Source: a virus (Duplodnaviria > Heunggongvirae > Uroviricota > Caudoviricetes). Taken from it: 36,382 nt of DNA. Location of the stretch: the IMG/VR virus record IMGVR_UViG_2880361019_000006. One strand, given 5' to 3'. This document shows, in pieces, positions 6,001 to 9,000 of the stretch. A program made the position numbers. The stretch's first letter is position 1; each line of letters starts with the position of its first letter.

Positions 6001-9000
6001 GTACCATGCGTATATCACAATTGTTATTCCAGTTATCATTTTCCTTGTGAGTTTTGGCTGCGCATGGCGCGGCCTTTTTTTACGGCCTGCTATTGGCAGA
6101 TGTTCATCCTGTGATTTTCTTCTGTTCCTGCTCCGGCCTTTCCCTACTTTATTCCTGTGCATGAGAGAAATTTGATGTCGATTAAACGTTATGATTTGGT
6201 CAGGGCTGCCTCGCCGTCAGATCTGGCGGAAAAACTGACACAAAAGCTGAAAGAGGGCTGGCAGCCATACGGCGGACCGGTTGCCATTACGCCGTACACA
6301 CTGATGCAGGCGGTGGCTATTGAAGGAGATCCACAGGTCGGCCCTTCATCTGAGCCGGACTGGTTCTACGTGGTTGTGCTTGCCGGACAGTCCAACGGCA
6401 TGGCCTACGGTGAAGGGCTTCCGTTGCCGGATTCTTACGATGCTCCGGATCCGCGCATTAAACAGCTGGCGCGCCGCAGCACGGTAACTCCGGGTGGAGA
6501 GAGTTGTACGTATAACGACATCATCCCGGCTGACCACTGTCTGCATGATGTGCAGGATATGAGTACGCTGAATCATCCGAGGGCTGACCTAAGCAAAGGT
6601 CAGTATGGCTGTGTGGGGCAGGGACTTCATATTGCCAAAAAACTGCTCCCGTATATCCCGAATAATGCGGGGATCCTGCTGGTACCATGCTGTCGTGGTG
6701 GTTCGGCATTTACCCTGGGCGCGGAGGGGACATTCAGTGCGGACACGGGGGCCAGCCAGGATTCGGCGCGCTGGGGTGTGGGTAAACCGTTATATCAGGA
6801 CCTGATTGTGCGCACCAAAGCTGCATTACAGAAGAACCAGAAAAATGTGTTGCTGGCGGTGTGCTGGATGCAGGGAGAGTTTGACATGAGCACCGCCACC
6901 TACGCACAGCAACCTGCGCTGTTTACAGCCATGCTGAAGCAGTTTCGTGCTGACCTCACTGTGTTTAACGCGCAGTGTCATGGTGGCAGTGCTGTAAATG
7001 TGCCGTGGATTTGTGGTGACACGACGTATTACTGGAAAAACACCTACGGCACGCAGTACAACACCATTTACGGGGCGTACAAAAACAGGGAGAGTGAGGG
7101 CGTTTATTTTGTGCCGTTCATGACAGACGGTAACGGCGTCAATACCGCCACTAATGCGCCGGCAGAAGATCCAGATATTCCGGCATCAGGATATTACGGT
7201 GCGGCATCGAGAACGAATGGAAACTGGGTATCATCAAACCGCCCGACACATTTTAGTTCATGGGCGCGCAGGAGCATTATTTCGGATCGCCTGGCAACCG
7301 CTATTCTGAACGCAGCCGGGCGCACCTCAGCCTTCATCAGTGGTAAGGCACCGGAAATCAACCCCTCGCCCGGCGGCGATACGCCATCGGGGCCGTCTGA
7401 TAGCGAAACATCCGTCCGCACAGTCTCCCTGCTGCCGGCAGACGGAGAGGCTGCTACGCAGGGCTGGACTATTAAAGATGGCGGAATTCAGCTGGCAGAT
7501 GGTGTATTTAAGATCACCAAGCAGAGCAATAAAACCTGGTCCCTGGCGCATCCGGTGGATGACGCAATTACCCTGCTGACACAGGGCGGCAGGCTGACTT
7601 GTAAGTTCCGCCTGTCTGGAGCTCTGACTAATAATCAGTTCGGGCTGGGGATTTATCTGTATACGGACGCTCCCGTTCCTGATGGTGTGGCGATGACGGG
7701 TACCGGTAATCCGTTCCTGATGTCGTACTTCACTCAGACCACTGACGGTAGACTGAATCTGATGCATCACAGGAAAGCAGGAAACACGAAGCTGGGGGAA
7801 TTTGGGGGCTACAGTAACGACTGGCAGACGCTGGAGCTGGTGTTCACCGCCGGCAGTGCCACGGTTACTCCGAAACTGAATGGAGTGGCTGGCCCGGCAT
7901 TCCAGGTTATAAAAGACAGTCTGACTCTGGGACTGAATGCGCTGACGCTGACGGATGTTACAAAAAATGCAGCGTATGGCGTTGAGATAGAAAGTCTGAT
8001 GCTGGAGATAAATGCACCGGCATCATAATAAAAAAACGCCAGCGTAGTAGAAGAGAAGATTACGCTGGCGTAGGGATATACCCCGTGGAGAAATGATATG
8101 TAACACATATCGGGGATATTTCTATATAAACATTATAATTATTGTCAATCATAATGGTCAGGTATTATGACGTTTATGCATCAGAGCCATCAGTAATTAA
8201 CTGGTGGCTTTTTTATTGTTGTCAGCTTCCGGATAACGGGAGACGGGGTATGTACCAGATGGAAAAAATCACAACAGGTGTGTCATACACCACGTCAGCG
8301 GTGGGGACGGGATACTGGTTACTGCAGCTGCTGGACAAAGTCTCTCCATCCCAGTGGGTGGCGATAGGTGTGCTAGGGAGCTTGGTTTTTGGCCTGCTGA
8401 CGTACCTGACAAACCTTTATTTCAAGATAAAAGAAGACAAGCGTAAGGCTGCGAGAGGTGAATAATGCCTCCATCATTACGAAAAGCTGTTGCAGCTGCT
8501 ATTGGTGGCGGGGCTATTGCTATAGCATCTGTGTTAATTACTGGCCCAAGTGGTAACGATGGTCTGGAAGGTGTCAGCTACATACCATACAAAGATATTG
8601 TTGGTGTATGGACTGTATGTCACGGACACACCGGAAAAGACATCATACTAGGTAAAACGTATACCGAAGCAGAATGCAAAGCCCTCCTGAATAAAGACCT
8701 TGCCACGGTCGCCAGACAAATTAACCCGTACATCGAAGTCGATATACCGGAAACAACGCGCGGCGCTCTTTATTCGTTCGTTTACAACGTGGGCGCAGGC
8801 AATTTCAGAACATCGACTTTTCTTCGCAAAATAAACCTGGGTGATATCAAAGGCGCATGTGATCAGCTACGGCGTTGGACATACGCTGGCGGTAAGCAAT
8901 GGAAAGGGCTGATGACTCGCCGCGAGATTGAGCGTGAAGTCTGTTTGTGGGGACAACAATGAGCAGGGTAACCGCGATTATCTCCGCTCTGGTTATCTGC

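Follow-up and report, generated by a model that had tools for sequence, protein, structure and literature searches.

The window analysed here, a 36,382-nt stretch of viral DNA (IMG/VR record IMGVR_UViG_2880361019_000006), carries in its late region a predicted sialate O-acetylesterase gene, nanS-p, directly upstream of holin and endolysin genes, in an element that also contains an integrase, a terminase and lambda-type head and tail genes. The integrase and excisionase genes (1..1270, minus strand) form the left prophage end and adjoin host mdtA (mdtA/mdtB flank). The features of the window that bear on nanS-p are the following.

1-1074, minus strand: lambda-type integrase (Pfam Phage_integrase, Arm-DNA-bind_1)
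1052-1270, minus strand: excisionase (phrog_629)
2135..4729, plus strand: ISEc12 (IS21 family), with istA at 2335-3876 and istB at 3888-4637 (Pfam rve, IstB_IS21)
4730..4863, minus strand: early-left phage gene remnant of 134 bp between ISEc12 and IS1A, matching the first 47 of the 98 profile positions of phrog_625
4864..5631, minus strand: IS1A, 768 bp, with insA at 5576-5301 and insB' at 5382-4879
5683..5841, plus strand: DUF3927/TciB-like small membrane protein gene (Pfam DUF3927, E 1.7e-15; 81% amino-acid identity to TciB of phage 434)
5853..6085, plus strand: STnc100-family (PasD-related) sRNA gene (Rfam RF02076, 89.4 bits against a gathering score of 47, E 4e-18)
6175..8028, plus strand: nanS-p, predicted 617-aa sialate O-acetylesterase (Pfam, PHROGs and PDB matches)
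6184-6321, plus strand: DUF1737 of nanS-p
6352-7311, plus strand: SASA/NanS catalytic domain of nanS-p, with Ser73 in GQSN, Gly176, Gln233-Gly-Glu235 and His359
7435-8016, plus strand: lectin-like C-terminal domain of nanS-p
8028..8109, minus strand: Esr41-like small RNA candidate (RF02676), adjoining the stop codon of nanS-p and bearing a terminator of its own
8183..8221, plus strand: hairpin with a T-run, resembling a terminator, in the gap between nanS-p and holin (terminator scan)
8250-8465, plus strand: P21-type class II holin (Pfam Phage_holin_2_1)
8465-8962, plus strand: SAR-type endolysin (Pfam Phage_lysozyme)
8959-9423, plus strand: Rz (Pfam Phage_lysis)
9179-9361, plus strand: Rz1, embedded in Rz
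16837..17848, plus strand: gene E for the lambda-type major capsid protein, carrying an inactivating deletion (compared with phage 434 gpE by tblastn and blastn)

The gene call places an ATG start at 6175 and gives a product of 617 aa; an alternative in-frame GTG at 6157 would extend it to 623 aa, and homologues begin with MSIK. Pfam matches above the curated cut-offs were obtained for DUF1737 (aa 4-49, E 5.7e-15), SASA PF03629 (aa 66-262, E 1.5e-11) and DUF6645 (aa 468-578, E 8.5e-19), while phrog_143 covers the protein end to end and PDB searches matched the NanS/YjhS structure 3PT5 at aa 60-379 (E 9e-122) and the NanS-p C-terminal domain structure 6YP6 at aa 421-614 (E 2e-30); the NCBIfam scan returned no family for this protein. 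The three-domain architecture of NanS-p, DUF1737 followed by a SASA esterase and a C-terminal lectin-like domain (DUF6645; 6YP6 fold), is present in full. The first-pass annotation had described a NanS-like protein of 617 aa with a DUF1737 N-terminus and a GQSN motif and had proposed an HMM search; the Pfam matches to SASA and DUF1737, the 3PT5 match and 91-93% identity to named NanS-p/SASA esterases bear this description out, as does the lysis cassette for its placement just upstream of the holin, with endolysin and Rz/Rz1 following. All 617 codons are free of disruption, an identical protein occurs on 3 contigs, and dN/dS against the phage 434 allele is 0.15. We therefore regard 6175-8028 as very probably an intact nanS-p allele, encoding the three-domain sialate 9-O-acetylesterase that lambdoid phages carry as prophages. 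Intactness is a weak sign of selection, because the adjoining lysis cassette (8250..9423, plus strand) is likewise intact, which suggests recent decay of the prophage. The protein has no signal peptide and its release thus depends on cell lysis.

Alignments with K-12 NanS and four NanS-p alleles, read against the SGNH block definitions for the SASA/CE6 family given in PMC9487903, located the conserved blocks as GQSN at aa 71-74 (nt 6385-6396), RGGS at 174-177, WMQGEFD with QGE at 233-235, and THFSS with H359. S73, G176, Q233-G-E235 and H359 are invariant among these proteins and supply the motif set of the NanS type (Block I Ser, Block II Gly, Block III QGE, Block V His). The DxxH form of Block V is absent from these alignments, an invariant Arg356 standing three positions before His359. 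The first-pass annotation had proposed judging the protein by its SGNH catalytic triad; that triad is indeed lacking, and the criterion is itself invalid because E. coli NanS has no Block V Asp and functions with a Ser-His dyad (PMC9487903). As judged from the alignments, the missing Asp excludes the canonical SGNH/GDSL subtype only, not esterase function. By homology, Ser73 of GQSN would be the nucleophile that attacks the 9-O-acetyl group of Neu5,9Ac2, and His359 would serve as its base, the two making up a Ser-His dyad like that of E. coli NanS. The Gln/QGE network may shape the oxyanion hole, and the jelly-roll, lectin-like domain at the C-terminus may direct the enzyme to glycans. De-O-acetylation would yield Neu5Ac, usable by sialidases and the Nan pathway. 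For homologues, esterase activity on Neu5,9Ac2, support of growth and removal of O-acetyl groups from mucin glycans have been demonstrated (PMC8065619). The benefit put forward in the first-pass annotation, access to sialic acid from mucin, agrees with the function published for homologues in EHEC prophages, which concerns O-acetylated mucin sialic acids (PMC8065619; PMC10462455). Expression of nanS-p rises with prophage induction (PMC10462455).

The protein is 93% identical in amino acids to the esterases of phage 434 and E. coli prophages, 91% to the NanS-p of an Stx1a phage, and 56% both to 933W L0105 and to K-12 NanS. The SASA-family esterase of phage 434 (UMO75335.1) has the same three domains and aligns over its full length; phage 434 and the orthologues in non-Stx E. 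coli lambdoid prophages also share the lambda-type virion module, and the order DUF3927/TciB - esterase - class II holin - SAR endolysin - Rz is common to 434 and the window, with DNA identity of about 92%, although the host here is E. albertii. Phage 434, however, has a Q82-like antiterminator, pR'/tR' and a 744-bp membrane protein gene before DUF3927 where the window has IS1A and ISEc12, and a small ORF between DUF3927 and the esterase in 434 is degraded in the window. The NanS-p proteins of Stx phages (933W L0105/z1466; phi24B vb_24B_21/gp84; Stx1a-phage yjhS) belong to the same family, with the same architecture and catalytic residues, and their genes likewise lie directly upstream of holin S with an STnc100 sRNA immediately upstream; unlike the window, these phages carry stxAB directly upstream of nanS-p, drive expression from Q/pR', and have AsxR/AgvB anti-sRNAs after STnc100. 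The Stx1a-type protein differs from that of the window mainly in DUF1737 (16/59 aa), whereas the more distant Stx2a type has a longer DUF1737 loop and linker. Chromosomal NanS (YjhS, PDB 3PT5) aligns end to end with the SASA domain and keeps the GQSN Ser, RGGS Gly, QGE and HFS His, likewise without the Block V Asp, but is a single-domain protein of 326 aa in the NanR-regulated nanCMS operon, whereas the prophage-borne protein adds DUF1737 and the lectin-like C-terminal domain.

Searches of the 36-kb window by tblastn gave no match better than E 0.1 to Stx1A/B or Stx2A/B, nor to Q proteins of the 933W, 434/Q82-like and lambda-like types, in agreement with the first-pass annotation that neither is present. 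Displacement of stx or Q to elsewhere in the element was rejected, since the seven query proteins gave chance matches only. In place of the Stx-converting module Q-stx-nanS-p-S, in which Q and pR'/qut precede stxAB, the upstream interval is of the 434 type, truncated by IS1A, with the DUF3927 gene as the sole survivor of the Q-to-esterase interval. The non-Stx order in phage 434 is Q - membrane protein - DUF3927 - small ORF - esterase - S R Rz, and because the DUF3927 remnant matches this arrangement, stx probably never adjoined nanS-p in this lineage. Two emphases of the earlier description need revision: the esterase does not sit where Stx phages carry stx but in its own usual slot, which in those phages is immediately downstream of stxB, and the idea that the lack of stx and Q is a notable architecture finds no support, given the ISEc12/IS1A replacement, the 434-type interval and the precedent of 2013, when long nanS genes in stx-negative strains were reported as 'invariably associated with prophage remnants' (PMC3658417).

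The junction itself is marked by two insertion sequences. ISEc12 is 99.7-99.9% identical to annotated ISEc12 copies in E. coli and has imperfect terminal inverted repeats (2135-2157 and 4707-4729); it has no obvious flanking direct repeat, and its boundaries are placed to within a few bases. Target-site duplications were sought to tell simple insertion from deletion, and no 9-bp duplication was found at IS1A (flanks gccacggtt and ggctattcg), which therefore marks a deletion or recombination junction at which the early region, Q and pR' were lost. In a second isolate, a draft contig has its start some 47 bp before the DUF3927 gene, in effect at the same junction. An IS-associated deletion marked by ISEc12 and IS1A very probably removed everything from the early-left genes to a point just upstream of DUF3927, including Q and pR', which are absent because the region between a few early-left genes and DUF3927 has been replaced by the two elements.

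What remains upstream of nanS-p is the STnc100 gene, which ends in a strong intrinsic terminator (stem 6056-6074, then T7) about 90 bp before the nanS-p start. STnc100 occupies the same position in 933W, in an Stx1a phage and in E. albertii type-strain loci, and the conserved module is STnc100 sRNA - nanS-p - small RNA region - holin/endolysin/Rz; the STnc100/PasD context and the PasA/PasC sRNAs of EPEC/EHEC prophages are described in a preprint (10.64898/2026.05.13.724894), and the hairpin at 8183..8221 sits where PasA/PasC sRNAs are reported. The Esr41-like candidate scored 47.5 bits (E 4e-7), below the Rfam gathering score of 102, and AsxR/AgvB anti-sRNAs were absent from the window even at E <= 1. 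Minus-strand terminators are annotated in phage 434 at the place of the Esr41-like candidate. The promoter scan found no sigma-70-like promoter above its threshold on the plus strand between IS1A and the nanS-p start codon. A weak TTGGCA/extended -10 candidate was seen by eye in this interval and was not counted. The normal route to nanS-p would be transcription from pR', antiterminated by Q through the STnc100 terminator, and because this route is lost, nanS-p is probably silent or weakly expressed in this prophage, and its activity in the strain may be nil.

Decay extends beyond the regulatory region. An 11-bp frameshift deletion near 17549 splits gpE into aa 1-237 in one frame and aa 237-341 in the next, and the prophage therefore cannot build capsids. 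With its regulatory region gone and its capsid gene frameshifted, the prophage is, on its sequence, defective. Lom is truncated in the same element. The host is E. albertii 2010C-3449, a human isolate with no stx (PMC10673567); the exact esterase protein is found on its accession CP034212.1. Against all 5,423 E. coli genomes the mdtAB flank reaches only 92.5% identity; this value and the listing of the accession as E. albertii led us to reject E. coli or Shigella as the host.

The reading we prefer is that nanS-p is a still-intact passenger of a decaying prophage, which may or may not add to the use of O-acetylated sialic acids. A rival possibility, to which we give somewhat less than an even chance, is that the gene is a relic, no longer transcribed, that is turning into a pseudogene and at present serves neither host nor phage. 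Q and pR' are gone together with the rest of the regulatory region, a terminator lies 90 bp upstream with no consensus promoter found, and decay is visible in gpE and Lom, all of which points this way; however, the reading frame is undisrupted, an identical protein occurs on 3 contigs, transcription may read through from the STnc100 promoter or arise from other weak promoters, and uninduced prophage copies give EHEC strains a growth gain on Neu5,9Ac2 (PMC8065619). It is very improbable that the real substrate is another O-acetylated compound such as LPS O-antigen, capsule or acetyl-xylan: acetyl-xylan esterases do belong to the SASA/CE6 family (PMC9487903) and O-antigen de-acetylation has been speculated on in a review (PMC8065619), but the catalytic domain shares ~56-65% identity with E. 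coli NanS, an enzyme that acts best on 9-O-acetyl-Neu5Ac, and several NanS-p alleles are active on Neu5,9Ac2 and mucin sialoglycans (PMC8065619).

Alternatively, NanS-p may be primarily a virion protein: DUF1737 would anchor a hexamer to capsid hexons, and the other two domains, esterase and lectin, would work on mucus or O-acetylated surface glycans as the phage infects. In phi24B, cryo-EM and proteomics locate a hexamer of the gp84 (NanS-p) DUF1737 domain at the central hexon of every facet of the T=9 capsid, report autoprocessing, and describe an anchor loop with a Tyr 'tooth' and SSP-type autoprocessing sites (bioRxiv 10.64898/2026.04.10.717836). DUF1737 is plainly present in the window protein, alleles of this type are carried by the viable lambda-type phages 434 and 2B8, and a role in the phage cycle was raised in review (PMC8065619). 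However, capsid binding was shown for the T=9 Traversvirus capsid only, whereas the head genes here (gpD/gpE) are of the lambda type, and relative to 933W/phi24B the anchor loop is short by 3 aa; in the alignment, Tyr41 lies near the position of Tyr42 and PSSEP replaces SISSP. A host-level growth benefit of nanS-p alleles is also documented experimentally (PMC8065619), and the frameshifted capsid gene makes a virion role impossible for this copy, which under such a reading would be a functionless relic in a capsid-dead prophage. We consider a primary virion function unlikely without dismissing it; virion and host-benefit roles are not mutually exclusive, and the phi24B result indicates that 'metabolic gene for the lysogen' may not be the primary function of the NanS-p family.

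A scan of the E. albertii type-strain genome detected long prophage-type nanS copies only, while the same scan found a short chromosomal nanS in E. coli, E. ruysiae and S. flexneri. This pattern raises the prospect, improbable on present evidence, that E. albertii lacks chromosomal nanS, that nanS-p copies are its sole route to O-acetylated sialic acids, and that the window copy has been domesticated and is expressed independently of Q. Domestication would then explain why nanS-p stays intact in a prophage that has lost its regulators and can no longer make capsids, and read-through from the STnc100 promoter is one example of how such Q-independent expression could arise.

Here we have characterized a nanS-p gene that is ordinary for its kind, an E. 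albertii allele joining the known NanS-p family, and the main value of the analysis lies in annotation through this addition. The locus illustrates the known persistence of such esterase genes in stx-negative prophage remnants. A possible extension of the capsid binding seen for DUF1737 of phi24B to lambda-type capsids, such as that of phage 434, provides a modest point for follow-up. Finally, the possible role of nanS-p as the sole sialate O-acetylesterase of E. albertii, an emerging enteropathogen, is a second modest point of this kind.

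The first-pass annotation had described an esterase with a DUF1737-like N-terminus and a GQSN motif lying just upstream of the holin, and this description of the gene, a prophage-borne sialate O-acetylesterase gene (nanS-p), was borne out.

Features of the nanS-p region and the interval upstream of it
2135-4729, ISEc12 (IS21 family), 99.7-99.9% identity to E. coli copies
4730-4863, 134-bp early-region gene stub matching phrog_625 over its first 47 profile positions (98 in all)
4864-5631, IS1A, 768 bp, 99.7-99.9% identity to E. coli copies
5683-5841, DUF3927/TciB gene, 81% identical to its phage 434 counterpart
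5853-6085, plus strand, STnc100-family (PasD-related) sRNA gene (Rfam, 89.4 bits against a gathering score of 47)
6056-6074 (stem, followed by T7), plus strand, strong intrinsic terminator ending the STnc100 sRNA, with nanS-p starting about 90 bp further on
6175-8028, plus strand, nanS-p ORF, ATG start, 617 aa
8028-8109, minus strand, candidate Esr41-like RNA (scoring 47.5 bits, under the gathering score of 102), nanS-p-to-holin intergenic region
8183-8221, plus strand, terminator hairpin, same intergenic region
8250-8465, P21-type class II holin, immediately downstream of nanS-p
8465-8962, phage lysozyme, downstream of the holin
8959-9423 and 9179-9361, Rz and Rz1, downstream of nanS-p

An in-frame GTG at 6157 could add six residues to the ORF; every homolog in the alignment starts MSIK. 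Profile searches placed DUF1737 (aa 4-49), the sialic-acid-specific acetylesterase family SASA (aa 66-262) and DUF6645 (aa 468-578) above curated Pfam thresholds, and a single PHROGs family, phrog_143, covers the full length. Among solved structures, aa 60-379 matched E. coli NanS/YjhS (3PT5, E 9e-122) and aa 421-614 the crystallised NanS-p C-terminal domain (6YP6, E 2e-30). Amino-acid identity was 93% to both the SASA esterase of phage 434 and an E. coli prophage ortholog, 91% to NanS-p of an Stx1a phage, and 56% to both 933W L0105 and K-12 NanS. Invariant across all compared NanS/NanS-p sequences were Ser73 (GQSN, aa 71-74), Gly176 (RGGS), Gln233-Gly-Glu235 (WMQGEFD) and His359 (THFSS). Within the SGNH hydrolases, these match what characterises Blocks I, II, III and V in the SASA branch (PMC9487903). 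The catalytic dyad would be Ser73 and His359. Absence of a catalytic triad had been proposed as grounds for rejecting the assignment; this test is invalid because the NanS family works as a Ser-His dyad and would be wrongly rejected by it. An invariant Arg356 occupies the position of the Block V Asp of canonical SGNH enzymes, and E. coli NanS also lacks this Asp (PMC9487903).

Among homologs of the window protein, every NanS-p allele assayed from EDL933 and O104:H4 is an active Neu5,9Ac2 esterase and enables growth on this substrate (PMC8065619). The lectin-like C-terminal domain of the window allele may target the enzyme to glycans. Direct reading of the sequence shows a charged N-terminus that lacks any hydrophobic stretch resembling a signal peptide, and release would hence presumably occur through cell lysis. 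Comparison with the phage 434 allele (146 nucleotide and 42 amino-acid differences) gave a dN/dS of 0.15 (Nei-Gojobori), which indicates purifying selection over the divergence between these alleles. Intactness of nanS-p in the window is by itself weak evidence for selection, as the lysis genes of the prophage are also still intact. Against the Stx1a-phage allele, the DUF1737 part (6175-6351; 3994-4170 of the Stx1a-phage locus) differs at 16 of 59 residues with a dS of 0.88, versus about 0.13-0.25 for the remainder of the gene. This contrast suggests that nanS-p is mosaic at domain boundaries, with the N-terminal domain swapped by recombination.

The reported absence of stx and Q was confirmed, with tblastn searches for Stx1A/B, Stx2A/B and three unrelated Q antiterminator types returning chance-level matches only across the whole 36 kb. 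The esterase does not, as had been claimed, occupy the slot of stx, for Stx phages (933W and an Stx1a phage) place nanS-p directly downstream of stxB. ISEc12, IS1A and the gene stub stranded between them lie between the excisionase side and the esterase. Both IS elements match E. coli copies at more than 99.7% identity, yet host core genes reach only about 92.5%. No 9-bp target duplication surrounds IS1A, and its differing flanks (gccacggtt and ggctattcg) mark it as a deletion or IS-IS recombination junction rather than a simple insertion. The draft contig of a second isolate breaks off essentially at this junction. Homology to other phages restarts after IS1A at the DUF3927/TciB gene. Phage 434 and a non-Stx E. 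coli prophage share the order Q, 744-bp membrane protein gene, DUF3927, small ORF, esterase, S, R and Rz, whereas the window has IS1A and ISEc12 in place of Q and the membrane protein gene. This 434-type interval points to a non-Stx 434-type ancestor, such that stx was probably never adjacent. Given the IS1A junction and the missing upstream genes, an IS-associated deletion took out the whole early region, and with it Q, the late promoter pR' and the terminator tR'. Thus the enzyme identity and plausible function put forward by the first-pass annotation stand, but lineage and IS-mediated deletion account for what it saw as a notable architecture without stx or Q.

In intact phages, nanS-p is induced together with stx and the late genes (PMC10462455; PMC8065619), implying Q-antiterminated transcription from pR' through the terminators flanking the gene. 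As this route is gone and no consensus plus-strand promoter was found between IS1A and the nanS-p start codon, expression of the window copy is doubtful. The placement of an STnc100 sRNA directly upstream of nanS-p recurs in 933W, where it comes right after stxB, in an Stx1a phage and in an Escherichia sp. locus, and twice, as tandem copies, in an E. albertii type strain locus (L010, 2722-2915 and 3191-3379). The homologous stretch of phage 434 had no match at the gathering threshold, despite 78% identity to the window there.

The element is a lambdoid prophage integrated beside mdtA, with integrase, excisionase, Nu1/A terminase, portal, protease, gpD and gpE head genes, a lambda-type tail with J, a PerC homolog, a truncated Lom, a tail fibre and an NleG effector; the regulatory region is absent.

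Capsid gene and cargo
9887-10201, plus strand, homolog of PerC-family activators, close behind the lysis genes
16837-17848, plus strand, lambda-type major capsid protein gene E, lacking 11 bp near 17549 by comparison with phage 434 gpE
31349-31750, plus strand, truncated Lom (119 of 199 profile positions)
33716-34363, plus strand, gene for an NleG-family T3SS effector, following the tail fibre
35057-36382, minus strand, 441-aa ORF, no Pfam match, phrog_5420 over its full length

The PerC homolog, Lom, NleG and the 441-aa ORF are cargo typical of prophages in attaching-effacing pathogens. Two genes are inserted within the tail gene cluster (24839-26444), one on the minus strand for an Arc-like repressor and one resembling a P22 antirepressor gene. 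The 11-bp deletion in gene E leaves gpE split between frames, aa 1-237 in one and aa 237-341 in another, so this ordinary, decayed prophage is unable to make capsids. Relative to E. coli prophages the element diverges as a mosaic, with about 90-92% identity to E. coli sequences in the esterase-lysis region (5600-9500), 97.9% in the head genes (10893-17721) and more than 99.7% in the IS elements.

The main rival view of NanS-p is as a virion protein, because the phi24B homolog gp84 decorates the capsid, with hexamers of its DUF1737 bound to the central hexons in a T=9 shell (2026 preprint, bioRxiv 10.64898/2026.04.10.717836). Carriage of the same esterase allele type by the viable lambda-type phages 434 and 2B8 would fit such a role, but in the window the head genes are of lambda type, the loop of DUF1737 is shorter by 3 aa and the capsid gene is disrupted. 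Together these make a virion role impossible for the window copy; its allele type might have one.

The host is E. albertii. The flanking mdtA/mdtB share only 92.5% identity with all E. coli genomes, consistent with this species, and an identical NanS-p is encoded by CP034212.1, from E. albertii 2010C-3449, a stx-negative human isolate from 2010 of ST5390 (2023 paper, PMC10673567). Long nanS copies in stx-negative EAEC, ExPEC and EPEC are without exception linked to remnants of prophages (Vimr 2013 review, PMC3658417), and nanS-p occurs in non-Stx prophages (Pascal et al. 2023, PMC10462455); our search found no paper joining E. albertii, prophage and nanS. The window gene adds an E. albertii allele to a well-known family. 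A genome scan of the type strain NBRC 107761 found two long nanS-p loci (84% identity). In this pattern-based scan, E. coli, E. ruysiae and S. flexneri yielded the short chromosomal nanS, and this one draft E. albertii genome yielded long forms only. On this basis, E. albertii may lack chromosomal nanS, and prophage copies may be the only sialate O-acetylesterases of the species.
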